This document shows positions 26,944 through 43,997 of a DNA stretch of 64,000 nt, piece by piece. Under the pieces are notes generated by a model. That model saw nothing but the letters and a program-made list of their open reading frames with translations. It searched no databases and had not been told where the DNA came from. Location: contig NC_092653.1 in assembly GCF_032118995.1 (NCBI RefSeq), positions 7,187,031 through 7,251,030 on the forward strand. Reading direction: 5' to 3'. The position numbers were made by a program, and so were the translations under genes. This DNA is from Asterias amurensis (taxonomy: Eukaryota). Within the stretch, counting starts at the first letter, position 1; every line of letters starts with the position of its first letter.

Positions 26944-27063
26944 TTATTCCTGGGATGGAGCGATCCCACCCAGCAGACCCTGGGCAGTATTGAACAGGTT
27001 GATGGGGGAGTGGCCATCTGTGATCAGGGTAGACTTCAATCCAAGACCCTGCAGGAGTTTCAC
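26944..27063 (-). CDS. MVP: MVP exon 14, terminal ([39 protein letters not shown])
   Basis: Acceptor tccatag|GTG, TAA stop at 26944-26946. Confidence 0.9.
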
Positions 27064-30000
27064 CTATGGAGAAAGAAATGGAACATCAAATTATTATTCA
27101 AATAATCTTGGAAGATATATTCATATTTAATTTCAAACTTAAAGTTTTGAAACTACCAGATGAAAAAAAAGGTGCAAGTTTAATTTTTTTTTGATAGAAT
27201 GTATTAAGCTTTTGGTATTTTTCCAAGCCTTGGCTCAGGCCATTCACTTTTTGTGCTTAAGCAGCTTTTCAAAATTGGACCCCAGGCCCGATTGTATAGA
27301 GCTGCTTAAGCACAGAAAGTGGCCAAGCACCACATACCATGCTTACCGAAATAAGATTACCAACAAAAATACCATGTTATAAGAACTATTTCTGAATTAG
27401 TATGCTGCTAATTTTTGCTAAGAATAAATATGTATAACCAAATTATCTGCTTATAAGCAACTCCACATTGGGCCCGGGGTCAATTTCATAGAGCTGCTTA
27501 AGCTCAAAAAGCAGATTAGCACAGCAACATTATGCTTACCAAAATAAGGTTGCCAGTCAAAATACCATATTCCATGTACAACTATGCCCGATATCCTGCC
27601 CATTTCTGCTAAGCACAAAATTGTTGAGCAACATTTACTGCTTAAGCAGTGCTATGAAATTGGGCCCTGATCTTTTAAGTGCGAGTGTAGAAATAATGTC
27701 CGCAGAAACCTACCTGCATCTCTGGGCCTGACACAGCGATGGCCTTGATGGTATCCGAGCCGATGGACTCAACCATCTTGTTGAACTTGGAGGTTTCGAT
27801 CTCGGACATCTGCCCAGCCTTGTTCACCTCCATCTCGTTCTGTTCAGTGATGTACTTCAGCTCAGCCTCCCGGGCGTTGGTGAGACGGTCCAGCTCAGAT
27901 TCCTGGATGAGAAGGAAGATGTGTAGTGAGGAAATTTAAACAAGGGCCATTGATAAAATTTGATTAACTTCAAATATTTGAAACTATGGGAGACTTTGGA
28001 CCGCTAAGTGACAGCAGACTTATCAGGTATAAATGTCCATTGTTCTGAGCATGCGTACATAACCGAGAACAATGGATTTACCATTAGACTGCTGCCACCT
28101 TGCGATCCGAAACTTCCCATATGGATGTCAACTTTGTGATGAACAGAATGTTTTTACACAGTGATTTATATATTTTTCTCTCTATGCTGTTTACCAGTTT
28201 ACATATTAGTTTTTTATTACAATCTTGTTTACCCTGTGGTGTTTTTTTCCTTTTACCCTGTCTCGCTTTACTTTTAACCCCTTTTAATACATTTTTTTGT
28301 TTCTTTTTTCAAGAAAAGATTTCAGGCACAGAAGTTCAATCAGGGAAATTTAAGAACTTGAGGTGAATATAAAAAAAAGTTTAAAGTTTTTATGTAAATC
28401 ATCATTTTGTATGATACCCGGACATAAAATATGTAAAATTGAAATATATGTTGTTAAATTGACAAATCAGGAAACAACTCACAGCTTCAATCTTTGCAGC
28501 CTCAGCCTTCAGCTTGGCCTGCTCGACGGCAGCTTCTCCCTCGATGCGTGCAGCCTCGGCACGGCTCTGGGCTTCGGCTTTAGCTTGACCGGTACTCTCT
28601 ACGGCTGCGCTGTTGGCCTGGAGGAGGAGCAGCTCCTTACGAGCCTTCTCGGCCTCCGCCTCGTCCATGATCTTCTGGCGCTCCAGACGACCCTTGGCCT
28701 CCTGCTCAAGACGCTCGGCCTCATGTCTGTCATGAACAACATTAACGAATATGTCAAATTGGATTTCTGCTTGGTGTCATCAATGTCATTTTCTGTTTGT
28801 AATGTTAGTTTTTAATGGACCACTGTCAAAGCCTTCTTTGCAACCTGATTGCAAATACTCGGTACACACGTGTTAGGCGTGGAATGAGGTGCATGCTGGT
28901 CTAGCTAGCGATCAAGTTAGCTAGACCAGCATGCACCTCATTCAACATTTAACGCTTACGCAATGGGTATTTGCGAAAAGGTTGATGGTTTAAAATCAAT
29001 TTTATGCTCAAGTGATCGGCTAACTTTTCCTTTATTAAACCACTTTGCTTTAAGGAAACTTTGTCCCCCCATATTTACCTGGCCGTAGCTTCCTGCGAGT
29101 TGGTCGTAATCTCAATAGCCAGCTGAACAGACTTCTGAAGCGCATCTCGTGTACGCTGGTCGACTGGCTCCACTGACTGGATGTCAATGCTGGTGATGAC
29201 CATGTTGTTCTGGGGGAAGTGGAACCGATCCCGTATCTTCAGGTTCTCGTCCATTCCGAAGACGGAGGCACGGATGATTTTTGCAGAGTTCTGTGGAAGA
29301 ATTAAGGGGGAAAATAATCGTACTTTGTTTAAATACAACACAATTTACAATAACGAAATGCCTGGGGGCCAATTTTTATAAAGCAGCTTAAGCAAGAAGT
29401 TATTGCTTTACAATTGTCTGCTATTAAGCAGAAATTATCAGGTTACCAGTCACACATTGCAGATTCTGACATGGTAGTCTGACTGGTGACCTTGTTCTTG
29501 TAAGCATAACTTTGTTGTGCATCTAGGCAGCTCTAAAAAAAATGACCCTGGTAAATGCGACAATATCGTTTCTGTAATCTTTCTCAGCTCCCTGAGGAGT
29601 ATAAGCCTTGCATTCCTAAGGTTTTTTTAAACAAAATATCAACCTCTATCCGTGCAGGTACCTATTTATACTCCTGGTTGAAGAGAAGCAACTACAGTAA
29701 AGCGTTTTGCTCAAAAACAAAAGTGTCACTTGGGCATTAGACAAGACACTACTAACCCATTATTGCTACATCCTTTGGGATTTGATGTAAAGCCATTTGA
29801 CCTGTGTGCGTGCTGAGTAAAACACATCAAAGTACCCAGTTCACATGTTGTTAAGAAAAGGTGTTTACCCTGGTGTTTCTGGCTTACTTGGTTGTGTTAA
29901 ATTTGTGCCAAGCACCTTGTAAAGATGCCAAATATATGGGTCTTATAATAAACATAACAGAGATGCCCTGCCAGGCCAGGAATTTCATCTGTGAGAGGGC

Positions 30001-33000
30001 AAAGCCATTTTGATTTTGCAAAGGGCACATCCATCGGAAAATGTTTAAGTCAAGAATTTTTTTTGAAGGGGCACCATGGCCAAGACCTGGACAACTGTGG
30101 GCCATGGCCTAGCTCTGTGGCCTCTGTGAGATTCGAGGCCTGCCCTGTGGTGCCAAAAGCGCTTTATACCAACTGCATATGATTATTATTATTATTTCCT
30201 CTCTTACCTTATGGAAATCATCAAAGGCAACTCCAGCCACAGCCCCTCTGATGCGGGAGGCGATTGCCTTGCAGGCATCACCGATGAAGTCAGGCACACT
30301 GAAGAGTTTAGCAGCATCTTCCGGAGAGCTTTCCTTCTTAACATCAAGATGCCTGGAACACAAGAAAATATTTGAGGGCTGTTTATGATGGCAGTCGTTT
30401 TTTTCAAAATGCAATGAAATTTGTTTTAAATGAATGCCTAGAATTCAACCCACTTGTTTTTGTTTTTGATGCACCAGCATGAAAATGATTTGCATTTGAC
30501 ATGGACAACTGACTATTTTCTGGAAGGTTATGAAAGTAAACTTTATTTTTCCTTTTTATATCATTGTAATTGCGATGACTTTAGTAAAACGCAAAAACAG
30601 TGGCTTGGGACCTCCCTCATCGCATGTGTGAAAGCGATGATGAAGTGAAACCTGCCCCTGGTCTACTCATCTTGTAAAATACTTTTAACTGAACACTCCA
30701 TCAAGCTCAAGTATACCATGCAATTAGAAAGTTCAAAAATAAGAACTTTCAGAACAGAATATGAAAAAAACCTACCAGTTGTATGACAGCTGAAGTTGAA
30801 GGCGGGCGTGGTCAGATGTCTCGATAGTGATGATATCGGTGCAGAAATCAGGGCCGAGGAGAAGGCACAGTGACCTGATCATGTTGGGGCGCTTCGGCTT
30901 CCCTCCGGACAGACTCAACTGGGTGAACTGCTCATCGGGGCCGAGCATGACTAACTCGGGACCAAACACAACCCTGAAAAGAGCCAAGGAACGAGAAACA
31001 TTACTAGTCTATGGTAAAAGTGAGCAAAACAATTAGATCTGTATGTGGGGGTGTTTAAACAGTTGATAATGACCAGCTGGAGTTGTTTATAACAGGTTGC
31101 TATCATACACGTTTGTGCGGGTTAGCCCACAACCTTGTTTCTATGGGTGATCAATCTCGCCGTGCTATTTTAGCCCATGATTACGAGGATGCATACTGCG
31201 CGCACAAATGCATATCTGAAAAGTGTTTCAGTCATAAAAATGCAACACATGAACAGAGCTCAAGGACGTCGGAAAACGGGTAAGCTTTACAGAGTTTCTT
31301 ACTTCATAACGCCGTTAAATCAAAAGCGCATTCATGAATGGGAATAAAAGAGTAGTGACTCGTTCTTAAACTGCCATTTAAAACCTTGTGATATCACACG
31401 GCCATGACCATACCGGTTTCAAACGGCAGTCACTACCCTTTTATTTCCTTAATTTTGCTTTTGAAAAAAAAAAATCCCCCTACCTTGCTTTCTTCTCCTT
31501 GTAGTCATAGATCTGCATGGCAGCGTTGTGAGGCACACGGAATGTAACAACCCTAGTCTTCTCTCTCCGTTTTTCACGTTTATCACCATTTGGCACCTCG
31601 TATGCACGGTCCGCCAAAGGGTCCTTCCTGTTCATCAGGAGTTCCTCCACAGCGGGGGGAAGCTCCTTTTGCCAGAGCTCCTCATCTTGGTTCAGCATGT
31701 AGGTCTCACCTGTGATGGCTCGCACCTTTTGGGAGAGAAAAAATTTTGTCATAAAAGAGATTAACTGATGTCCCAAATAAACGGTAAGCAGAAATTTGCT
31801 AAGCAGTTGTTTTAAGTTTGAATAAATAATTTTCTACATGGAAAAAAAAAATAAAGAATAAAAATAGCTGTATTTTCTGCTTAAAAGCTCTATGAAATTG
31901 GACCCCCGTAGAAAAAAAAAATGATTTCTTACCTTACCCGTCTTGGTATCTCGGACATAGATACCTTCATTCTCATCCAGCGGGATGGCACACCTCTGGG
32001 CAATCACCTCCACCTCTACTGGGGGGACGTACTCCTTGGGCCCACGGATCATCCACTTGTCACCTGGCTTACGGTTGGTATCCTGTTGTACGCAAACAAA
32101 CAATGCTAAGAGTTTATCCTAAGAAGGACTTTACAAAAGGGTGGCGCATCTTCTAGAATAAGGGTCATTTTGTGTCAAATCACCCGATGGGTTAAACCCT
32201 ACCCTCTTCAAATTTACTCAAATTTGGTTTATGGGGTAATCGTGGCTCAACAAGCTCAAATTTCAAATGCAAAATTTTTCTGCTTGAAAAAAAAAACAAA
32301 TGAACTGAAACACCATGGGTTTTTTTCAAAACCAGAGAAAAATATGAATTGAAATGTCATTATGTTTTCTTCAACTTACTGCATCTGTGTCCTTGAAGGC
32401 CTCTTGGGAGCGAAGCATAAGACCCTCATCCTCTCCCAAGACGTACACATCCTGAATTCCCTTCTCAAGATGCTCCCCTGGACGCAGGAAGAAAGACTTC
32501 TCACCCTGTAGTTAAGAGGGGAGAGAGGTGGGAATCGTCCATTATAAGATAAGACTTAAACGCACTGGACACTATTGGTAATTACTCAAAATAATTGTTA
32601 GCATACAAACTTACTCGGTAAAGAGGTATGGAGAGCTGTTGATAGTATAAAACATCGCCAGAATTGGATCCCTGTGAAGTTTTTTGTACGTAGCTCTACT
32701 GTTGGTTGTCCCCCCTTTTTGGAAAATATCTTCAGTGGCGTGTCATCAGGGCCGAGCGAATAAGAGCACCGTACACAAAGCTCAGGTTTTCTGTTCAGCA
32801 GAGTGTGGGTTCGAGAGTCGTGACATTTATAAGCCCGCCCTTGAACCATTATTGCTGCGTCCTTTGAGTGGGACGTAAAGCCGTTGGTTCCACGTGTTGT
32901 GTAATGCACGTAAAAGTACCCAGTGCACTTATCAGAAAGAGAAGGTGTTCCTGGTCTGATCGGCTGCATAATGCACCACAGCAAACACCATTACATGATG

Positions 33001-36000
33001 CTACAAAGGAATAGGTCTCATACTTCAATACGTAGCTCCACATACTTTGCAGGAAATAATACTGAGTGGTTTGATACGCCCCTGCTAAAGCGCTATATAA
33101 AAGTAGTATTATTATCGATAGTACCTTGACCATTTTCTTTTGTCCAAGCTGTGGTTTTCCGTCAGCTCCGACAGGATCCAGGATCACACAATACTGTCTG
33201 TTGGTCAATGTAGTGATGGCAACAACACCAACAACCTGCAAATCAGACACAGGGATTTAATCAAATGCTTAAAACATGGATAAGGTTTGTCGAAAGTGAA
33301 CATTCCTTAAAATACACTGTTGGCCTGGGTTCAGGAAAATTTAAAGACCTAAGGAAGTTAAAAAAATTCCTGAATTCCGAAAATCACATGCCTATTTAAA
33401 AAGGCCAACACCTAACTGTTTTTTAGCATCTATACCATAGGTGCTTTTGGTTGGTTAACAGTTTGCCATTGCTGGCTGAGTCTATTTTCTTAAGTTATCA
33501 AGTGATCAAACAAGGACATGTTTTTATTTTAATTCAAATTTCTTTTTTAACAAATAATTGTATTAAAGTAAACTCCATTAAGTTAAAATCTAAAAATGAT
33601 TCTTTCTCAGAAAATCAAATTTCCCAAATATATTTTTCAAAACTCAAACAAAGAGAAATACCACAGAAACAGGTGGATTTCTTTTCACAACAAAAACATT
33701 CCATATGATTGTTGTTTTATATTGTCTGTATTTTTGTGGCTGTTTTTTATGTCTGGGAAATACTTTTTCATGATTCATGATGAATAAATAAATCTAATCT
33801 AATCTTATTCCAATGATTGACAATGACAATTTCTCTTTTTACCTCTTCATAAACCTGTGGAATATGTGCCTCTGTGTCGTTCATTGTGATCAGCCATTCC
33901 TCACCGTTCTTCCTGACCACACCCTGCTCATCCTTAAAGGTGCGAGTGGCTCTGACGTGGAGTGCTTTCTGTTGACAAAGTCACATTGAAAAAAAAAAAA
34001 ATGATTTCAACAATCCACACAAAAGAGCAACTTTCATTATTCTACTCAAACTTTCGGCAAGAATATTCAAAAACAAGCAAAAGTGTTTGGTAAAGACATT
34101 TTTAAGTTTCGTTAAAAAGTGTCATTAGCATTGGCTTTGTAATTTGAACTGATGTGAAGTGGTTTGGGACTTCAGCAATAAACTAGCCAGCCTGAACAGC
34201 CGGACAGAATTCTGATTGGTCGTCATTTATTATAACTGGCATTTGGCCAGCAGACCACCGTTAGAGGAGAACAAACACTAGACAAGGGAAACTAGACTTT
34301 TGTCCAATCATTACACCCAGCCAAGAAGTGGTCCATTCTTTCTATCAAAATTGAGTACTCTTGAGTTAAAATATATTACTACACCGCATATATATTCATG
34401 ACCGAGAGTCGAGTTCTCACTGGTCCATTCCTCATCATGTGCCAGTTGCTATCTTGACTACTTACCAAACATGCACATGAGTATTCACCCACATGGTAAA
34501 TGTGCATCACAAGTAGCCCAGCCTTCACCTCGGGAACTAGTTTGTCATCTTCCAATACCTCGGGGAGCTAATATCGACTATTCACCCTCAAACCTTGTTA
34601 TATTTGTTTAATAGTGCTCACCTTGTCTGTGAGTACATAAGCATTGACCACGCCCACAACTTCCTCATACGCTCCGGGGAGGTAAGCGCCGACCTTCTTG
34701 ACGAGCCACTCCTCACCCGTCACCCTCTCCTCGTCCTCTCGATCCACAGTCTCCTTCCTGGCCCGGAGCTTGATGGCCTGGTTGGCCTTGATGATTGTTG
34801 CGCGGCAGGTTTCGTCCACGACAACTTCCTTACGGGGAATGTAAGTTCCGGGTCCTTCAAAGAGCCACTCGTCCCCGGCCACTCGCTTCTCCCCCTCGTC
34901 GTCTTCAAAGTCAAGGATTGAGCGGAGGCGGAGGGCCGAATTGGCAGGCACAACTTTCAGTGGGGACACGGCCTGTTGAAAGAGAAATGTATACATAAGC
35001 CATTTTGAGATATGGTGGACACATTACTATAACACTGTTAGGTTTTCTTCTTAACAAAAGTAAGCAGGATACTAGTCAATATTTTGGCTTGTATCAATAT
35101 TTTGGTAAGCTTAATTTTGTTGTGCTTGGTAGTTCTCATCCATTTCAATCATTTCACGTCACCAATTACGCAATCCACCGCCTGACATATTTTGGGGGGC
35201 TTGACCAACAAGGACTTTGGGCCATCAGGAGTCTTTGAATAGGGAATTTGGATTCAAGTCACAGGACATCCATCAGTGTGATGTGATTTATGGAAATGTT
35301 AAGCCTGAGTCTTTGAAGATTTTGCCGAACAATCCGGGAGGTATGTAGAATTACATTCAACATAATACGACAAATTTTTCACAAATTAGGGAGATTTTCA
35401 AATTCATTCATCAGAACATGGCCAGATTGATTGATTCATTTTCAGGGAACTTTCTGCAGAATCAGGGAGAGTTGGCAGCTCTTGTGATAGCAACTAATGC
35501 ATGAGCTCTACCCTGGTGTCTATAGACCCCTTGCAATACGCGCAGCGTACTCACATGTGCCTATCCTGAGTGTCATTTTGGGTGTCAAATCGTATACAAA
35601 CATGCACAAAAGAGAGTTGACGCCCAAAGTTAAGCGCACTGTCGGAGGCGCGTTCTGTATTGTGTAAGAAATCAATAGCTCCCTCTTGCATAACGCGAAT
35701 TGCTACAGGTACGCTGAGGTCACGCGCACGCTTTTATGCACAGAGAACAGCTATTTCCCAATGATCTGCCTCCTTTTTGAGAACGTAGCATCATATGCAA
35801 TGGGTCTATCCTTCAAGCTTCAAATCAGAGGAACTCTGCCACAATTCTCACCTGTTTGAGCATTTCTCCAGGGTAGAGAGGAAACGGGTCCTGAGTAAGG
35901 CGAATCTCTTGATCGGCATGGCTAAGTTTGATCTGTCCGCTCTTATCAACGATCACGGTGCCATCCTCTTTGCGCTGAACGGGGTTCTCAATGATGGCGT

Positions 36001-36904
36001 AATGGCGGGGCGGCACCATGACCATCTTCTCAGGACCGTAGATGACTCTGAAAACAAATTGGAAATGGTGAGTATTATAAACAGTTGGGATAAATTGTGA
36101 GTCAAAGCAACTGTTACTGTGGTCATGAGTAAACCAAATTAGCCACCTACCTGGATTTTTGAATCAGCTGTTTTTAAGCAGACAACAATAGCATTTTTCT
36201 GATAAGCAGGAAATTTTCATCGGTACATACCGAAAGGTATTTTGGCTGGTAAGTTTTCTAGTTTTAAAACAAAACTTTTTGTAATTAACAAATCAACAAA
36301 CAAAAACCTAGAACAAGACTTGGCCTCCATTTCTGGCAAATTGTAAACAATTAAAAATTTTGCTCAAGAATTCCAAGAATTCTCAGTTGGGTTGGCAAAT
36401 GAGGTCGGTAAAAAAAATGAGCATCCTCGTCCAAATTTTAAATTTGCTTTATATTTAGGCCTATCCAATCAAATTGTATTTTTAACAAATTGTTATGGGT
36501 ATTTTCATATATCCAAAATTTTGTACAAATAGAGATTTAAAAGAACAATTATAACAACATTTCAACATTTGAACATATTTGGGGATTATTAGATATTATG
36601 TTGAAATAGACCACTGGACTTGTACAGTGATCCTGAGTTCTGGCCCAGAACTAAAATCACTGGCCTCTGGACTGCGGTCCAGTGTTAATTTCAAGTCCTT
36701 TCCCTACAGGGGGACGTGATTGTCTCGTTACCTTTCATGATCCTGCCTGATGTAAGTACGAGGGCCAATCTCCACTGTGGTGACGTTTGTGTTGTGATTC
36801 AGAACGTGGATGTAGTAGTAAGGGGGAATCCTGTAGATGGACTCATCAGCCCCTCCTCCTACAACAGAAGGCGCGGCACTGCCTCGCTTGGACCTGTCAG
36901 CCAT
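26944..36904 (-). CDS. MVP: Major vault protein, gene span, 14 coding exons, 2583 nt CDS = 860 aa
   Basis: Exon translations are collinear with vertebrate MVP from the N-terminus ([63 protein letters not shown]) through the MVP repeats and shoulder to the cap-helix ([41 protein letters not shown]..) and the C-terminus ([32 protein letters not shown]). Every junction is phase-consistent and the total is divisible by 3. Confidence 0.92.
27235..27668. mobile_element. Cluster of two to three adjacent or nested family-A MITEs in MVP intron 13
   Basis: Successive TIR pairs: ..aaaattggacccc | caggcccgattgtatagagctgcttaagc..ctccacattgggcccgg | ggtcaatttcatagagctgcttaagc..gctatgaaattgggccctg. Confidence 0.8.
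27714..27902 (-). CDS. MVP: MVP exon 13 ([63 protein letters not shown])
   Basis: Acceptor catccag|GAA, donor CAG|gtaggt. Confidence 0.9.
28483..28726 (-). CDS. MVP: MVP exon 12 ([82 protein letters not shown])
   Basis: Acceptor tgacag|A, donor GCT|gtgagt. Cap-helix region. Confidence 0.92.
29079..29290 (-). CDS. MVP: MVP exon 11 ([70 protein letters not shown]-)
   Basis: Acceptor ccacag|AAC, donor AG|gtaaat, ends phase 2. Confidence 0.9.
29745..30200. mobile_element. SINE family S2-related copy in MVP intron 10 (ends ..aaaagcgctttataccaactgcatatgattattattattatt)
   Basis: Body ..cattattgctacatcctttgggatttgatgtaaagcc... and a characteristic tail. Confidence 0.65.
30208..30352 (-). CDS. MVP: MVP exon 10 ([49 protein letters not shown])
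   Basis: Acceptor gttccag|G, donor AAG|gtaaga. Confidence 0.9.
30776..30973 (-). CDS. MVP: MVP exon 9 ([66 protein letters not shown])
   Basis: Acceptor ttttcag|G, donor TG|gtaggt, ends phase 2. Confidence 0.9.
31484..31725 (-). CDS. MVP: MVP exon 8 ([80 protein letters not shown]-)
   Basis: Acceptor ccaaaag|GTG, donor AG|gtaggg, ends phase 2. Confidence 0.9.
31770..31906. mobile_element. Family-A MITE fragment in MVP intron 7
   Basis: cggtaagcagaaatttgctaagcag...ctgcttaaaagctctatgaaattggacccccg. Confidence 0.55.
31933..32082 (-). CDS. MVP: MVP exon 7 ([50 protein letters not shown])
   Basis: Acceptor caacag|GAT, donor AAG|gtaaga. Confidence 0.9.
32380..32505 (-). CDS. MVP: MVP exon 6 ([42 protein letters not shown])
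   Basis: Acceptor ctacag|GGT, donor GCA|gtaagt. Confidence 0.9.
32557..32700. mobile_element. Truncated family-D MITE (one TIR) in MVP intron 5, adjacent to a SINE
   Basis: cgcactggacactattggtaattactcaaaataattg... Confidence 0.55.
32700..33120. mobile_element. SINE family S2 copy in MVP intron 5, ending ..gctaaagcgctatataaaagtagtattattatc
   Basis: Head gccgagcgaataagagcaccg..gagtgtgggttcgag plus body and tail. Confidence 0.75.
33125..33235 (-). CDS. MVP: MVP exon 5 ([37 protein letters not shown])
   Basis: Acceptor tttgcag|GTT, donor AAG|gtacta. Confidence 0.9.
33843..33968 (-). CDS. MVP: MVP exon 4 ([42 protein letters not shown])
   Basis: Acceptor caacag|AAA, donor GAG|gtaaaa. Confidence 0.9.
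34622..34972 (-). CDS. MVP: MVP exon 3 ([117 protein letters not shown])
   Basis: Acceptor ttcaacag|GCC, donor AAG|gtgagc. Two MVP repeat units. Confidence 0.92.
35852..36047 (-). CDS. MVP: MVP exon 2 ([66 protein letters not shown])
   Basis: Acceptor ttttcag|A, donor CAG|gtgaga. Confidence 0.9.
36732..36904 (-). CDS. MVP: MVP exon 1 ([57 protein letters not shown]-)
   Basis: ATG at 36904, donor AG|gtaacg. A TATA-like (36956-36963, minus-strand ctttataaa) and a CCAAT box (36975-36979) lie just upstream. Confidence 0.85.
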
Positions 36905-37230
36905 TGTGAATAGTCAGCCTGAAAACAGAAAGAGTAACAATAATAAATACAAACATTTATAAAGCGCATCCTATCCAATGGTTAGAATTAGAAGGCGCGG
37001 CACTGCCTCGTTTGGATCTGTCAGCCATTGTGATTAGTCAGTCTGAAAACAGAAAGAGTCACAATAATAAATACATGAATATTTATAAAGCGCATTCTTT
37101 ATCCAATGGGTAGCGGCACTGCCTCGTTTGAACCTGTCAGCCATTGTGAATAGTCAGACTAAAAACAGAAAGAGCTGAACAATAATTAATACAAATATTT
37201 ATAAAGCCGCATATTATCCAATGGTTAGAA
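36877..37230. repeat. Tandem triplication (period ~118 bp) of the MVP first-exon start (first ~35 nt of CDS including the ATG), the 5'UTR and the TATA/CCAAT promoter unit
   Basis: Three near-identical units, each containing ccattgtga(a/t)tagtcag(c/t)ctgaaaacagaaagag..aataaatac..atttataaagcgcat..tatccaatgg + cggcactgcctcg(c/t)ttgga(c/t)ctgtcagccattgtg. Starts at about 36877, 36994 and 37113. Confidence 0.85.
36950..36985 (-). promoter_or_regulatory. MVP: Putative MVP core promoter: TATA-like (minus-strand ctttataaa, 36956-36963) and CCAAT box (36975-36979), about 50-75 bp upstream of the ATG. The same unit is repeated twice more upstream.
   Basis: Motifs read directly from the sequence. Their position relative to the ATG at 36904 is appropriate for a short 5'UTR. 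Confidence 0.4.
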
Positions 37231-37624
37231 TGACATAAGGCAGTAATTCCAGAGAGGAAACATTGTAATTGAACAGGATCCTTAAAAGATGAAAATAGGT
37301 GTGACCATGGTATGACTTGATTTTAGATTTGAATGAGTACAACTGAAGTAGGATGTTGAGAGGTAGCGAGGAATCTTCAAAAACTGACAAATCTCTATTT
37401 ATTTTATGTCATGTCATATATGAAAAAAGGCATTTGGTAATACATTGAGTAAAACTTGAGTGCATTGATGTAACATTATTATACATAGAGGCCTGGCTAT
37501 AAAACATCAGTTACTTAAAAATACATGAAATTTGAAACTAATATAGTAATATCCTTCCGAGTGACACAAACTTTTAGCAGTGAAAATCTACTACAGGGCA
37601 AAACTGTACTTCCTCTTAAAGCCA

Positions 37625-37972
37625 TATACACTTTTGGTAAACAGTATTGTCCAAGTCCCACACTTCGTGTATCACAACTTATAATAAAATAACAAACCCG
37701 TGAAAATTTAGGCTCAATCGGTCATCGGAGTCGGGAAAAAAATAACGGGAAAACCCACTCTTGTTTCTGCACGTTTCGCCGTGACATAACATGTGTTTAA
37801 CATAAATCCGTAATTCTCGATATCGAGAATTGATATTGTTTTAATGTTTTCTCAAAAAGTAAAGCATTTCATGGAATAATATTTCAAAAGAAGTCTTTCA
37901 CTGTAATACCTTCTGTAAACCCTGTAAGTTATTTGTAAATCTGTGAAACCAAAAGTGTCCAATGGCTTTAAA
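37625..37972. mobile_element. MITE family E (TIR TTAAAGCCAT...ACTTTTGG / CCAAAAGTGTCCAATGGCTTTAAA), ~350 bp. Flanked on both sides by a ~100-bp direct duplication (37521-37623 / 37973-38077).
   Basis: Shares the internal module ccacacttcgtgtatcacaactt..aacaaacc(c/t)gtgaaaatttaggctcaatcgg..cacgtttcgccgtg with the other E copies. Confidence 0.8.
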
Positions 37973-39539
37973 AATACATGAAATTTGAAACTAATATAGT
38001 AATATCCTTCCGAGTGACACAAACTTTTAGCAGTTGAAAATCTACTACAGGGCAAAATTGTACTTCCTCTTCAAAAAAATCAGCTATGATTGAAAAGCCA
38101 CATTGATGTGAGTCACTGAACCGTACACTGATATTTATCTCTGCTGATTGAGCCACCCCAAGGTCAATGTGGGTGTAGCTATTAATAAGGTAAACATTTT
38201 GCATTTCATGCTGAGAATTGGATTTACTGTACAACCAACACAGAACACTGAACAGTGATCTACTGCAAAATGTCATTGCTAGCACAAAGTGAGTTCACAA
38301 TTACAACTGGGGTGGGTGTAAAAATTGCCCAACAAACAACCAAGTTCAGCAACAAGGAGGTCCAAATTTAATAAATACTTTCTAGAAAAATGTCAGTACA
38401 CCCTGCCACTGTTTGTTCATTCGTCAACGTCTGATCGTTGACGTTTCCTATGTATGATGAAACAAATTACTTATAACTGAAATGAGATTCCTTTTAGTAA
38501 AAACTAGTGAAACTGTGGTGGCTGGATACAAAAGTGTTCTCCTCTTTAAAATAGCATTCCTTCAATCAATACTATGGAAAACTTTGCACGCACTTCCATT
38601 AGGCCATGCATCTATTTATGTAGTTTTGTTCTAGCAAGTTTGCATCGTTACTGTTTGTTCTATTTTTTTCAATGACAATAATAGTTCAACCATACTCAAC
38701 TGAACGCTGAATGGTGTGGGACCAAATTTTGGCAGATCAGGTTCACAACATCACAAATGTAGTCATGGCAAGTATATCTTCCCGTTCATAATTTCAGTCA
38801 TATCATTCACAAAACAAAAATACATGACGGATTCAAAGTAACTCACCTTTATCGAATCTCTCGACGAACGACTGAAAAATATGCGAGGCGGAAGCCTGAA
38901 TTTATCCATGCAGTTATTACCAGGTACTTGTGCAATGGCAACAGACTGACCAATCAAGAGGTCGCACATGCTGGACACGCCCACATGAATCTATTACTGT
39001 CGATTACATCATAGTTTTGCTTCAAAACGCCGCGCATGCATTGAAAAGAAACTAAAAGACGTCATCAAAATTCATGTTTGTTTGACAATCGGTTCATGAT
39101 AGACGCTTTGGGTTTTGTTTGTTTGCCGACGTTGCAAGAAAAGTGTTGAAACTCGTTGATAATTCATCTTGCACCGAATGATTAATACTGTTAAAAAGAA
39201 AAGAACACAAACAAGAGAACTGAAGCAAAATCCGACCACGGCTCAGGCGAGTGCGTGCTTTCAATTTGCGAGAAAAAAAAATCAAAATTAGCAAGGTTGC
39301 CGAACCTCCTAACTATCCACTAAACCTGAAAACCACACCATAGGCGATTACTTGCACAAATAAAAGCTGACTAGACACGGTTTGTTAATTCCACACCCTT
39401 TATTTTGTATCTAGCATTTTGAAGCAATTTTTCTAGAAAACAAATCCAAATACACAGGCCGCAAACATACGTCTGATGCAACCATCTGTAATTAATAATG
39501 TAGACGGATCGTGAGTCACAGCACGCAGGTGTCGCATGC

Positions 39540-40660
39540 AATTATGCCCTCTATGCAATGCTATGGAAGACATTATTGCATATGCAATAATGTTATTGCA
39601 TATGCAATAATGTTCGCCGGACGGTTTTGCATATGCAATCGTGTCCGCCCGGACGCTGCTGCACAATGCAATTGTGTCCGCCCTAGTCTTGAAGTCAAGA
39701 CGGTAATTGTTAAGCGCGGTGTGCAGTTACAGCGCGGCGTAGCTACGGGGACGATGAACACACCCTCGATCCCAGTATGTGTGAGTGAGTCAGTCGCAAT
39801 TACAGTTACAGTTAGAGCTGCCTCGCGCTACCTACGACTGTTGCATGTGTAACATCGCACTGAGACTGTTGCATGAAAGGCAGACAAATAGGCAGCGCCT
39901 AACGACTTGTCATCAAGTCTTTGTCCGCCCGGGCACATTTGCATATGCAGTTGTGTCCGCCCCGTGCAAAACTGTCCTTGCAGTAAATTAAATGTCCTTG
40001 ATCGACGGAACACGTTCGCCATTCAAGCTAAATGCATGTCATGGGAAAGGTTCGACCGTTGGGTATTTGCTGCAATCATAAAAATTAAAGGAACACGTTG
40101 CCTTGGATCGGTCGAGTTGGTCTTTGAAAAGCGTTTGTAACCGTTTTTTATAAAATGCATATGGGTAGAAAGATGTTGTAAAAGTAGAATACAATGATCC
40201 ACACAAACATGCCTCGAAATTGCGTGGTTTTCCTTTTACCTCGTCGACTAACACGTCGGCCATTTATGGGGGTCAAAATTTTGACTCCCATAAATGGCCG
40301 ACCATGTTAGTTCGTACAGTAGAAGGAAGACCATGCAATTTTGAGGCAAACTTGTATGGATCATTGTGTTCTACTTTTAAAACATCTTTCCAACCGTATG
40401 CATTTTATAAAAAAACGGTTACAAACGCTTTTGTTTTGACCAACTCGTCCGATCCAAGGCAACGTGTTCCTTTAATACGTGAATATTCATGCTGCATATA
40501 AGGTTCAGCGCATATATGCACGTTCGCTTACGCGCGCACATACATGTAACAGTCATGTACATGTCCACCGGACGGTTTTTGCATAGCCCCGGATACGATT
40601 GCATATGCAAAAGTGTCCGGAACGGACAGTATTGCATGGCGGACACGATTGCATCTGACA
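39540..40660. repeat. Cluster of >=7 copies of the palindromic 12-mer TTGCATATGCAA (and variants), each paired with a GTGTCCGCC(C) unit, on both sides of foldback MITE copy 2
   Basis: attgcatatgcaataatgtt (x2), ttgcatatgcaatcgtgtccgccc, cacaatgcaattgtgtccgccc, tttgcatatgcagttgtgtccgccc, gattgcatatgcaaaagtgtccgg, tattgcatggcggacacgattgcatctg. Confidence 0.7.
40089..40471. mobile_element. Foldback MITE copy 2, TTAA TSD (40085-40088 / 40472-40475)
   Basis: Same element as 7799..8180, >90% identical. Confidence 0.9.
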
Positions 40661-41433
40661 CTGGTTCACTAGGTTGTGCTTGATATTATACGAAAACAGA
40701 CGGCGAATATGGTGACCAAAATTATCTGGGGACCATTCAATTCACTCTCAGTGACTACTAGGTCTTAGTGGCGGACCTCAGCAAACAAAAACAAAGTAAT
40801 TTTACCGTCTTGGAAAAGGGAACGAGTTATACACGAGCAACTCGCCAACACATGATTGTCTACATTAAAATATGTTTGTTTGTATAGATAGTTTAAACAA
40901 CAAGAGTTAGATTTGTTTACTTATGTATTCTTTATTTGGAGTTGGGTGGTTACTTGCAGATGGAGTGCTACATTTTTTTTTAAATCTAAAAGGCCACACA
41001 AGAGGGCGCTATCAAACTGATGTGACACCAAAAACAGCCGCAGTTTACAGCACAGTGTGATGGATGGCTATTCGTTTTATTGATGATGCAGATCATTTTT
41101 AGGAAATGTTAATATTTCGTTCGTACTATGCACATCCCCTGTGCCTCAGCTTATAAGTTATGAAGGTGATGCAATGGGGGGGGGGGGGCAGATGAGCAAC
41201 AAAATAGATAACGGACACTTGAAACAATTGCCTTTAAACCACGTTTACTTTTCAAGTTTTCCGGTAGTGAATGCGAAATGTGTCATAATTTGTCAAACAT
41301 TACAAATTCCATTATGTTCAGGAACAGTTAAATTTTTCCTTCCAATCTTCAATGCATTTTATAAACTTTATGTGGTAAATATCAGCATTTACAATTACAT
41401 GTTGGTGTCTTTAGAAATAACCGACGGTGTTAA

Positions 41434-41537
41434 AGGCAGTGGACACTATCGGTAAATACTCAAAATAATTACCGGCATAAAACCTCACTTGGTAACAAGT
41501 AATAGATTTTGACAATTACCAATAGTGTCCATTGTCT
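41434..41537. mobile_element. Mini-MITE (104 bp) made of the two family-D TIRs only, TTAA-flanked
   Basis: aggcagtggacactatcggtaaatactcaaaataattacc..ttaccaatagtgtccattgtct between TTAA at 41430-41433 and 41538-41541. Confidence 0.75.
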
Positions 41538-41567
41538 TTAAAAGCCTTCAGAGGCTATCATTTAGGC

Positions 41568-42190
41568 CTATACACAAGGATTGTCTGGACAGAGTTCCTC
41601 TCCGCCGAACTCCAGAGCAGCGCCTTCGAATATCTGTGTACTCAAAAGACGGTAGCCAAACAGCCTACGCTCATACACGGCGATGTCAACCGATGCCGCA
41701 AAGCTTTCAACCAGTACATTCTCGAAGCCCCGCTCGGTGGGCCCTCTCAGACACTTCTGAAGGGTCGAAGGAGGCGCTCTAGCCCGTATGACCAACTTGT
41801 GCCGGAACGAAACCACTTCTATGGACACCTCACCGGAGCAGCCATCCGAGGTCACCCGAGCCATTGAATTGACGGGGTGGAAGTTCAACTCTAGTTCGGT
41901 GTTGAAGTCCCTGACACCAAAGAGGTGAGCTGGTACCGATAGAGGACCGAACCCAAGCACCCCAAATGTCCCTGCGAAGGCCGTCGATGAGGTTGAGTTG
42001 ACGCCCTGCATCCAGATCCATGAAGCAGGGAAGCCGTTTCCCCAGTTCTTCTCCTGGTGCATTGTACCGTCGCCTTGGATGCGGAGGCCCGTCTTGTCAT
42101 TCTCCCAGGTAAAGTCGCCAGGTGTTGCTAGGCTATAGACGAACCAATGGAGAGGGATGAACGGTACGTTGCCAAGCCAATCTTCTGGTC
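41568..42190 (-). CDS. Tocopherol-cyclase-like exon 2 (C-terminal half, ends ..CPDNPCV*)
   Basis: Acceptor catcaacag|GA completes the split Gly codon. Frame matches track ORF 41568..42218. TAG stop at 41568-41570. Confidence 0.8.
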
Positions 42191-43166
42191 CTGTTGATGG
42201 AGAAAACCATAAGAACAATTGAAAGAAACGTGAGATGTTATTCTAGAGAGAAGACCATCTAATTTTGGAAGGTTACACTTTGTCTCAACACCCATGTCAC
42301 GGCAACCTTATTGTATTTTCATAATCCAAACCATCACGGGGGGGGGGGTCGGCACAAAGGGTTGTCGAACAAAACATGGGCTGGAGGGGATGATTAAAAA
42401 GGCGCTATCAAATAAAGTTTTAACATAGTTCGCCATAATGGGGCCACAGAATCTCCAGGGGGACCGAAATGAAATATTAAAGAGCATTCAACATTTTGTG
42501 AATTACTCAGTGAGCCGTTGCTGTCTCTTCTGTTTTTAAAACTACTATGACCCAAGTGTTTCGTAAAAAGTGGTGCAAATATAAACGTTGATTTAGAGGA
42601 ATCACTTTAGGGCAACAACAAAAAACAGAGAACAAAAAATCAGTCTCACCTTTACCGTGAGGTCCCCACGGAGATGGAGGCCCGAAGTTTCCCGAGAAGC
42701 GATCGTCTCCGATCGTAAAGTCGAACGTTGTCGAATCTGGCGTCACATTGAAGAATCCGAACGGCTTAGCTACCCATTCGAAATGTGACGGACTCCAGTT
42801 GTCTGGATTTCCCGTCACCGGTCTTCCGCCGGATACAGTCACCGAGATGGTGTCCTCGTCTGGGTAGGCCTCGGCCACGACAAACGGTGCCGAATTGCCG
42901 TCACTTCGGATGATGGAGATATACGTCAGTGGAGGAGATGTGCTGTTGTTCCCTTCTTCCAATGGTTTTGGTAAGACCCGACCGAAGAGAACGCCGAAGG
43001 AGCGTGGGGAGGATGAGTCCGTTATACGGGCATACCAACCTTCGATGAACGGCCCTTGTTCGGGATAAACGTGGGGGTCATTATTATTTGCAGCCACTCC
43101 CGTTATTGCGGCAACTAGCAGAGCAAAAACGAGGGTCATTATGGACCGCCAAACCAATGCAGCCAT
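41568..43166 (-). CDS. Secreted tocopherol-cyclase-family protein (VTE1/SXD1-like, Pfam Tocopherol_cycl-like), gene span, 2 exons, 1140 nt = 379 aa
   Basis: Exon 1 has an N-terminal signal peptide (MAALVWRSIMTLVFALLVAAITGVAA) followed by ..FIEGWYARI.. (compare plant VTE1 FFEGWYFRV). Exon 2 has ..PLHWFVYSLATPGDFTWENDKTGLRIQGDGTMHQEKNWGNGFPASWIWMQGVN.. (compare VTE1 [52 protein letters not shown]) and C-terminal similarity (..VESFAASVDIAVYERRLFGYRLLSTQIFEGAALEFGG). Several N-glycosylation sequons (NST, NVT, NWS, NS). Confidence 0.8.
42650..43166 (-). CDS. Tocopherol-cyclase-like exon 1 (signal peptide + N-terminal half), donor G|gtgaga, ends phase 1
   Basis: ATG at 43166. Matches track ORF 42507..43166 up to the donor at 42649-42648. 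Confidence 0.8.
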
Positions 43167-43997
43167 CTTGTTGCAAGTGCTGTTATGACATAGAGTTAAA
43201 ATCGTTTAATCAGAACCTGATGCAATGGCTTAAATTGTCCTCGGGGATGGACTTTTGCGGTGATGAAAAAGTTAAACCGTTGTATCAACAGTGTCTACAA
43301 CAGTTAGATAACACTGCCCTTTGCTTTTGGATAACATGTTAAATAAGCACCACGTGATTTGTTAAAGCTTGGAGGAAAGGCCATTGTTAACATTAATATC
43401 TGTGTTCGGGAAAAAAAACCAAATGCATTTTTAGTTGCATTTTAAAACACAAACCGATCTACCCAAACTCATGAAAAGTTGTAAACTTATGTTTTTATGC
43501 TGAGATAAAAACACTAGAGCAATCACCCAAACAAAAACAAACACCCCTAATAAACAATACAAAAACTACCCCTAATTAAAAATTAGGCCAAGTTGGCGTA
43601 ACCCTATAATAGAATATTATTTTTATGCACATTATACCGGCCTCCTGGCCAACACACGGTCACAGGATGACACGAAAAGCCACTTCTATAGACGTGTAGT
43701 CGTAGCCAAACCCAATGACTACACTTCTATAGCTAGATCTTCTATCATTAACGTTCTAAGCCCATAGCCACATCCATAATATCATTTTTGATACGGCCCT
43801 TGATTAGTTACAAGGTTATGTTACACAAAACCAGTGACTTTTTTTGTTTACCCCTCGTCCAGCTTTTCTCTAAATAAAGGTTGCAAACATATCACTTACC
43901 TCGCAATATTTTGGGACTAAACTTTTTGCAGACAGTTACTTCCACACATTCCAGAGCTAACTTACAGTTGTACGTAACATGTCCGGTTTCAACTTAA

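Follow-up and report, generated by a model that had tools for sequence, protein, structure and literature searches.

A diverged tandem triplication at the start of the MVP gene in Asterias amurensis, very probably a copied 5'-UTR splice boundary rather than a promoter array

The gene for the major vault protein (MVP) of the starfish Asterias amurensis begins within a short array of three similar units, each of which contains a TATAAA string, a CCAAT-type string and a start codon in a favourable context. The original prediction for this locus regarded every unit as a promoter joined to a start codon. The array therefore raises the question whether a promoter has been multiplied here or another element of the gene that lies next to the start codon, and what the additional start codons may mean for the MVP mRNA.

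Results

Three diverged tandem units at the start of MVP

A tblastn search with a human MVP sequence revealed that the minus strand of the window, i.e., the whole 64-kb stretch of DNA that was analysed, contains an MVP gene with multiple exons. After splicing, the model agrees with XP_071789878.1, 'major vault protein-like [Asterias amurensis]', at 100% of 860 aa. The main ATG lies at 36904-36902 in the context ttcacaATGG, and the exon that contains it ends with the donor AAG/gtaacg. The gene model and the units of the array are as follows:

26944 to 36904, minus strand: MVP coding region, 14 coding exons with GT-AG introns, 860 aa
36732 to 36918, minus strand: first coding exon, predicted exon 2, from the gene model
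36866 to 36989, minus strand: unit A (proximal, 124 nt), predicted intron 1 end, acceptor, 14-nt 5' UTR and first 39 nt of the MVP CDS
36990 to 37111, minus strand: unit B (middle, 122 nt), duplicate putative acceptor and ATG, 92.4% identical to A
37112 to 37232, minus strand: unit C (distal, 121 nt), duplicate putative acceptor and ATG

The array at the 5' end of the gene thus consists of three diverged tandem units on the minus strand. Tandem Repeats Finder reported a period of 116 nt with a score of 342, a repeat finder returned n = 3 copies with start-to-start spacings of 124 and 116 nt, and in a search within the window unit A matched units B and C with E = 1e-43 and 2e-40, respectively, so that the presence of a triplicated start-codon module, at a level well above chance, was confirmed. 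The array is located where it had been placed before (36877-37230, with a unit of ~118 bp), although its true extent is slightly wider (36866-37232) and the units measure 121-124 nt. The motif ATGGCTGACAG is found three times in minus-strand orientation (37144, 37028 and 36904), at the ATG positions of C, B and A. The ATG and its strong context are preserved in all three units, and A alone continues into the MVP ORF of 860 aa. As had been stated, only the most downstream copy, which is unit A at the lowest coordinate, runs into the MVP coding sequence, and the 14-exon model agrees with this assignment.

Pairwise identity among the units amounts to 88-92%, and unit B lacks ~6 nt at its 5' edge. 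The divergence of 8-12%, with indels included, indicates that the array is neither a collapsed nor an expanded identical repeat. An assembly artefact, or a fragment of a dispersed repeat or transposon, is therefore a most improbable origin: tandem repeats carry a general assembly risk, but here the units differ by 8-12% with indels, and the two-copy array of A. rubens, junction included, recurs in two independent assemblies. Beyond B and C, unit A had no further match anywhere in the 64-kb window, and the unit did not occur elsewhere in 30 kb of A. rubens, the search being limited to the window and the A. rubens sequence. A dispersed repeat or transposable element was dropped as a candidate on this basis.

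Read along the gene strand, each unit has the order CCATTGG ... TATAAA ... ctctttctgttttcag/gctgactattcaca-ATGGCTGAC. CCATTGG and TATAAA are present in 3/3 units, with TATAAA at 36961-36956, 37087-37082 and 37203-37198. Taken at face value, each unit could represent a core promoter with TATA and CCAAT boxes, to which a short 5' UTR and an ATG would belong, and the array would then provide either more promoter strength or leaders with upstream ORFs (uORFs). On this view, start sites would be expected within CTCTTTCT, ~25-30 nt before each ATG (about 36932, 37056 and 37172). In each unit TATAAA is positioned 29 nt upstream of CTC+1TTTCT, which matches the TCT/TOP initiator consensus. Two A. rubens RefSeq protein accessions with identical sequence would also fit heterogeneity of the 5' UTR; however, this pair fits alternative splicing or the duplicated exon 1 equally well. 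In addition, the three occurrences of the motifs are copies of one event and hence carry the weight of a single observation, in DNA that is A/T-rich. Together with the comparative evidence given below, these points make it quite unlikely that the units act as promoters.

Each unit contains a putative 3' splice acceptor

In each unit, a polypyrimidine tract is followed by an AG that ends 14 nt before the ATG, an arrangement that looks like a 3' splice acceptor. As the sequence of a unit is compatible with this as well as with a TATA box and initiator, evidence from outside the array was used to separate the two readings. The three sites were scored with splice matrices trained on MVP introns from A. 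rubens and Patiria:

36919 to 36920, minus strand: AG of acceptor A, ctctttctgttttcag/G, 10.9 bits, rank 1/97 among the AGs in the putative intron
37043 to 37044, minus strand: AG of acceptor B, ctctttctgttttcag/A, 7.3 bits, rank 2/97
37159 to 37160, minus strand: AG of acceptor C, ctctttctgtttttag/T, weak with 2.4 bits, weakened TAG/T

The genuine acceptors of this MVP gene range from 6.4 to 15.7 bits, and the true coding acceptors average 11.0. A pyrimidine tract with an AG of normal strength, as a duplicated acceptor should possess, is accordingly present in the array, C being weak. Via acceptor A, exon 2 would begin at 36918, 14 nt 5' of the ATG. As the acceptor matrix is only moderately specific, with controls that put true acceptors at ranks 3/168 and 4/143, the conclusions rely on the donor scan and on the comparative evidence.

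The homologous site is a proven splice junction in other animals

Patiria miniata (L003) has a single copy of this region, which reads aattacag/aataaacaatcaaa-ATG, with the AG likewise 14 nt before the ATG. TATAAA and CCAAT were absent at the matching position near the Patiria MVP ATG. A contig of another asteriid (L001, from the assembly GCA_014845345.1) resembles a fully processed MVP mRNA, from which the 13 coding introns are gone and in which the 3' UTR is included. It likewise has a single copy, reads ttctgttcttag/gctgaacattcatg-ATG, so that the end of the AG is again 14 nt away from the ATG, and has neither TATAAA nor CCAAT at the corresponding place. This contig extends 513 nt further upstream through the acceptor region. 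Its homology to Asterias stops ~47-50 nt before the ATG, and its first 513 nt had no match in the window, A. rubens or Patiria. In place of a spliced junction the contig keeps intron-like sequence, a point against the splice reading that we tentatively attribute to a retained intron or to the loss of a very short exon 1 during assembly, and L001 serves as indirect evidence. A read-through of the acceptor region in the absence of TATAAA fits poorly with a transcription start within that region.

Transcripts from more distant animals locate an intron at this site. In Argopecten, the RNA-seq contigs L007 and L008, compared with the genome sequence L005, contain a non-coding exon 1 that is spliced 13 nt before the MVP ATG; exon 1 corresponds to L005 6496-6582 with the donor CAG/gtaagc, and the acceptor reads tgtttcag/ATAATCAATCAAA-ATG. 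The exon-2 start of Argopecten, ATAATCAATCAAAATG, resembles that of Patiria, AATAAACAATCAAAATG. In Acropora, the contigs L011-L014 join exon 1 (L010 7119-7193, donor GAG/gtaagt) ~25 nt before the ATG. The junctions in scallop and coral indicate that a 5'-UTR intron ending just 5' of the start codon is an old feature of MVP, and acceptor A occupies the position homologous to these transcript-proven acceptors. The layout with a 5'-UTR intron that ends before the ATG is therefore probably common to Asterias, Patiria, Argopecten and Acropora, whereas the boundary exists in two to three tandem copies in Asterias only and as one copy in Patiria, L001, Argopecten and Acropora.

These comparisons bear directly on the function of the TATA-like and CCAAT strings. 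The strings themselves are present in each unit as described before (TATAAA and CCATTGG), but a promoter role is not supported, as position-matched motifs are missing in both Patiria and L001. The units as a whole, interpreted as TATA box, CCAAT box and short 5' UTR, are likewise not supported as promoters, since the supposed leader coincides with an acceptor at a site proven by transcripts in homologous genes.

A conserved upstream block may contain the MVP promoter and exon 1

Only one non-coding block in the ~5 kb that separate the ATG from the upstream gene shows conservation between Asterias and Patiria (E = 4e-13). It pairs window positions 39018-38901 with Patiria L003 6865-6986 and lies ~1.95 kb upstream. 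The following elements were assigned to the block and to the region downstream of it:

38898 to 39018, minus strand: candidate MVP promoter block, from Asterias-Patiria conservation and a three-species alignment
from 39013, minus strand: invariant TATGATGTAATCG
38982 to 38973, minus strand: GGGCGTGTCC
38958 to 38946, minus strand: inverted CCAAT, CTTGATTGGTCAG
38938 to 38922, minus strand: CCATTGCACAAGTACCT
38907 to 38898, minus strand: TATA-like element, GGATAAATTC
38847 to 38873, minus strand: predicted non-coding exon 1, ~27 nt, AGTCGTTCGTCGAGAGATTCGATAAAG, followed by the donor GTGAGT
36919 to 38846, minus strand: predicted intron 1, 1928 nt with acceptor A, from donor 38846 and acceptor 36919, enclosing B and C

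The three-species alignment of the block contains a GC-box-like GGGCGTG, the inverted CCAAT GATTGGTC and CCATTGCACAAGTACCT, and the TATA-like element reads GGATAAAT in Asterias and GCATAAAA in Patiria. An initiator-like TCAGTC follows 32 nt downstream of the TATA-like element, and GATAAAG/GTGAGT is found 27 nt beyond TCAGTC. From the spacing of TCAGTC we infer a transcription start at about 38873. The block is likely to represent the MVP promoter, which would place it ~2 kb upstream of the start codon. The human MVP promoter is TATA-less and has an inverted CCAAT/Y-box, a GC box, an E-box and a STAT1 site (PMC3216873, PMC7916137). An inverted CCAAT and a GC box or GC-box-like element are thus common to both, which is a match at the level of motifs only, and the starfish block differs from the TATA-less human promoter by its conserved TATA-like element (PMC3216873, PMC7916137). 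An Rfam scan of 36000-41600 yielded only sub-threshold miRNA-like matches.

The donor AAG/GTGAGT, with its GT at 38846-38845, ranked 1/301 among the GTs in 41500-36904. A. rubens has this donor as well, and Patiria has an aligned one. Applied to Argopecten and Acropora as a positive control, the scan placed the true exon-1 donor at rank 1/322 and 1/276, respectively (2/2 species). The aligned donor of Patiria, GAA/gtgggt, ranked only 7/273. An upstream donor and an exon 1 that match a duplicated acceptor are thus present, with this reservation for Patiria. A promoter-like, conserved block with a top-ranked donor upstream of the array also argues against promoters within the units. Position-matched promoter motifs and an ATG exon that is also the first exon, which would characterize a tandem promoter array, were both not found.

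The ATG exon, previously taken as exon 1, is most likely exon 2, as suggested by the upstream donor and by the scallop and coral transcripts, and the gene model is corrected accordingly. The 14 coding exons and the one predicted non-coding exon of the starfish gene give the same total as in human MVP, which has 15 exons (PMC7916137). For Asterias itself, the splice that joins exon 1 to exon 2 and the choice of acceptors are predictions. Sequence collections were also searched for Asterias transcripts: an exact look-up of the 860-aa MVP protein gave no match, a search with the N-terminal 240 aa retrieved no transcript fragment from an asteriid, the 58-aa exon-2 ORF and the 36-aa copy-C ORF had no match when looked up as exact sequences, and a metagenome scan for the predicted exon 1-exon 2 junction gave 0 matches. 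A search with the 58-aa exon-2 ORF returned the genomic contig L015 only, which informs on copy number.

Use of the upstream acceptors would add upstream ORFs to the leader

The two upstream copies keep their ATGs, as originally noted, but the ORFs do not both stop after ~24 codons: that of B has 23 codons and that of C has 36.

36957 to 37028, minus strand: copy B ORF, 23 codons and stop, a uORF only via acceptor B or C
37034 to 37144, minus strand: copy C ORF, 36 codons and stop, MADRFKRGSAATHWIKNALYKYSCIYYCDSFCFQTD*, a uORF only via acceptor C

The stop codon TAA of the copy B ORF sits within the TATAAA of unit A. Longer leaders would hold these uORFs (23 and 36 codons), whose ATGs have the strong context cacaATGG. 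Out-of-frame upstream ATGs are located at 36969 and 36956, and their ORFs overlap the main ATG. An alternative leader that carries an upstream ORF, as in uORF control of the human type, is hence encoded at this locus. As the units resemble acceptors and a conserved donor lies upstream, any mRNAs with uORFs would probably arise via alternative 3' splice-site choice. The proposal of longer, uORF-bearing 5' UTRs is thereby retained for the case that the upstream copies enter the mRNA, but not with respect to the route, for which upstream transcription starts had been assumed.

Copy number differs between sister species

A. rubens has two copies, with an identical junction, in each of two independent assemblies: the reference (L002) and an ENA short-read contig (L015). 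The suggestion that the array varies in copy number is thus borne out between sister species, with three copies in A. amurensis versus two in A. rubens. Unit C and the distal copy of A. rubens are 93.3% identical and have indels in common, indicating that they are orthologs, and the same is indicated for unit A and the proximal copy of A. rubens by an identity of 94.3%. Unit B has an indel in common with the proximal copy of A. rubens but is less alike downstream. Two histories would account for the copy difference: a gain in A. amurensis, or a loss in A. rubens in which B and A underwent unequal crossing-over. The unit boundaries exhibit TTCT microhomology between the upstream flank, tgtCATTCTaacc, and the exon, gcgccTTCTgttg, to which slippage or unequal exchange would fit.

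Between the two species, the units are 93-94% identical versus 94-95% for the flanking intron. As both values are similar, there is no sign of additional constraint or selection on the upstream copies. These copies could therefore be neutral, with acceptor A alone in use and with B and C inert, drifting and shifting in number by unequal crossing-over. That A scores highest and C is weakened (2.4 bits) is in line with this view, as are the evolution of the upstream copies at the rate of the neighbouring intron, the polymorphic distal copy in A. rubens and the variation in copy number between species. On the other hand, acceptor B, with 7.3 bits, is within the genuine range and is transcribed before A, so that some use would be expected. 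We regard strict neutrality as plausible at slightly less than an even chance; it is a sub-case of a duplicated splice boundary, not a true alternative to it.

Discussion

The array at the start of A. amurensis MVP is very probably a tandem triplication of the intron-1/exon-2 boundary, which would lie inside the 5'-UTR intron and not consist of promoters. Each unit would comprise the last ~70 nt of this intron (A/T-rich, with pyrimidine tract and AG), the 14-nt 5' UTR and ~40 nt of CDS. Transcription from the conserved candidate promoter ~1.95 kb upstream would produce a non-coding exon 1 of ~27 nt that ends with AAG/GTGAGT. Splicing to A, the strongest and most consensus-like acceptor, would result in a leader of 41 nt, and B and C would be spliced out with the intron. 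With acceptor B or C instead, the leader would increase to 165 or 281 nt, respectively, with one or two uORFs and the out-of-frame upstream ATGs, and such longer leaders would be expected to lower MVP translation.

uORFs are generally expected to lower translation of the main ORF. A 5' UTR splice variant of human MVP reportedly contains a small uORF that inhibits expression (Holzmann et al. 2001, FEBS Lett 494:99; cited in PMC3875758). In the human variant, and by prediction in the starfish gene, exon 1 is non-coding and the ATG lies close to the beginning of exon 2, and the effect in starfish would parallel that of the human variant if acceptor B or C were used. Unlike in the human variant, the putative alternative acceptors and uORF starts of the starfish are tandem duplicates of the authentic acceptor and of the MVP ATG. 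Alternative splice sites that stem from segmental duplication, and duplicated 3' splice sites that compete with each other, are a known phenomenon. In such cases, tandem acceptors compete for one donor and the extra segment alters the leader, as would be the case in the starfish array. The putative starfish acceptors are spaced by 116-124 nt, and each of them comes with a pyrimidine tract and a start codon of its own; in this they differ from NAGNAG sites, which are separated by a few bases.

In a further-reaching interpretation, the array would be a working, fast-evolving translational rheostat in which B and C are used appreciably and perhaps in a regulated manner. We consider this doubtful. 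If it applied, gain and loss of copies, such as the three in A. amurensis and the two in A. rubens, would tune the output of vault protein between species, and the arrangement would have originated independently of, and in parallel to, the human MVP uORF splice variant.

The array is most likely a fairly ordinary small tandem duplication that provides putative competing acceptors and potential uORFs. It marks the 5' end of MVP in Asterias as prone to small tandem duplications, and it illustrates that TATA- and CCAAT-like strings beside a start codon can belong to an intron, next to the splice acceptor of the 5' UTR. Should the spare acceptors be in use, the array would be a natural case in which the duplicated start region of a gene itself creates uORFs, an echo of the human MVP variant.

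Genomic context of MVP and related sequences

The MVP gene was found within a gene order in which a tocopherol-cyclase-like gene is followed by MVP and an ERM-family (FERM) gene, all on one common strand. The adjacency of MVP and the ERM gene is conserved in both Asterias and Patiria. The coordinates for this gene order are as follows:

Window ~40680-43750, minus strand, A. amurensis
L002 3649-5205 and 23704-30629, A. rubens reference locus
L003 24489-31447, Patiria miniata MVP locus

The asteriid contig L001 (GCA_014845345.1, JACSEG010002527.1; 3724 bp) holds an intact MVP ORF of 863 aa without introns, together with a 3' UTR. Although it belongs to an assembly deposited as 'genome', the lack of introns means that this contig is either cDNA-derived or a retrocopy. 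In addition, two proteins annotated in the cyanobacterial MAGs UBA11369 and Leptolyngbya sp. SIO1D8 (P0210 and P0227) share 51-54% identity with the N-terminal repeats of MVP; their contigs span 17.7 kb and 4.3 kb, and the proteins could represent bacterial MVP-like genes or contamination. Rfam matches below threshold were obtained on the plus strand of the window for the miRNA precursor families MIR8562 (40208-40350) and mir-3012 (39563-39620), with 38.5 and 31.4 bits against gathering scores of 211 and 90, respectively; both probably occur by chance.

Repeats and duplications in the MVP 5' region

In Patiria, the intron following the ATG exon contains 17 copies of a 16-nt unit (AGGTTACCTTCTCTTC; L003 10204-10480), and this array begins immediately 3' of the exon-2 donor. 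Intron 1 of A. rubens carries an insertion of ~574 bp (L002 9159-9732), which is also present at the start of the independent short-read contig L015 and is absent from A. amurensis; the distal unit of the acceptor array follows ~60 nt downstream of it. The insertion looks MITE-like, as judged from its long, almost perfect inverted repeat (tgacgtcaatcgaggcagactttgcctg ... caggcaaagtctgcctctattgacgtca). Intron 1 of A. amurensis contains 72-nt direct repeats (window 37515-37586 and 37968-38039), which are 97% identical and 453 nt apart. Between them, the segment ~37618-37967 is missing in A. rubens; it includes a dispersed repeat (37731-37659) matching several places in L002.

A. rubens further displays a tandem duplication of ~847 bp (L002 6754-7600 and 7601-8447; copies 99% identical), whose counterpart in A. 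amurensis (window ~38912-38400) occurs as a single copy. As the left edge of the duplication coincides exactly with the TATA-like box, the predicted core promoter, exon 1, donor and 5' part of intron 1 are doubled, but the CCAAT and C/EBP-like motifs, both located upstream, are not. This duplication may account for RefSeq listing two isoforms whose protein sequence is the same. Taken together with the acceptor array, the ~847-bp duplication identifies the MVP 5' end as a hotspot for duplication within the genus Asterias.
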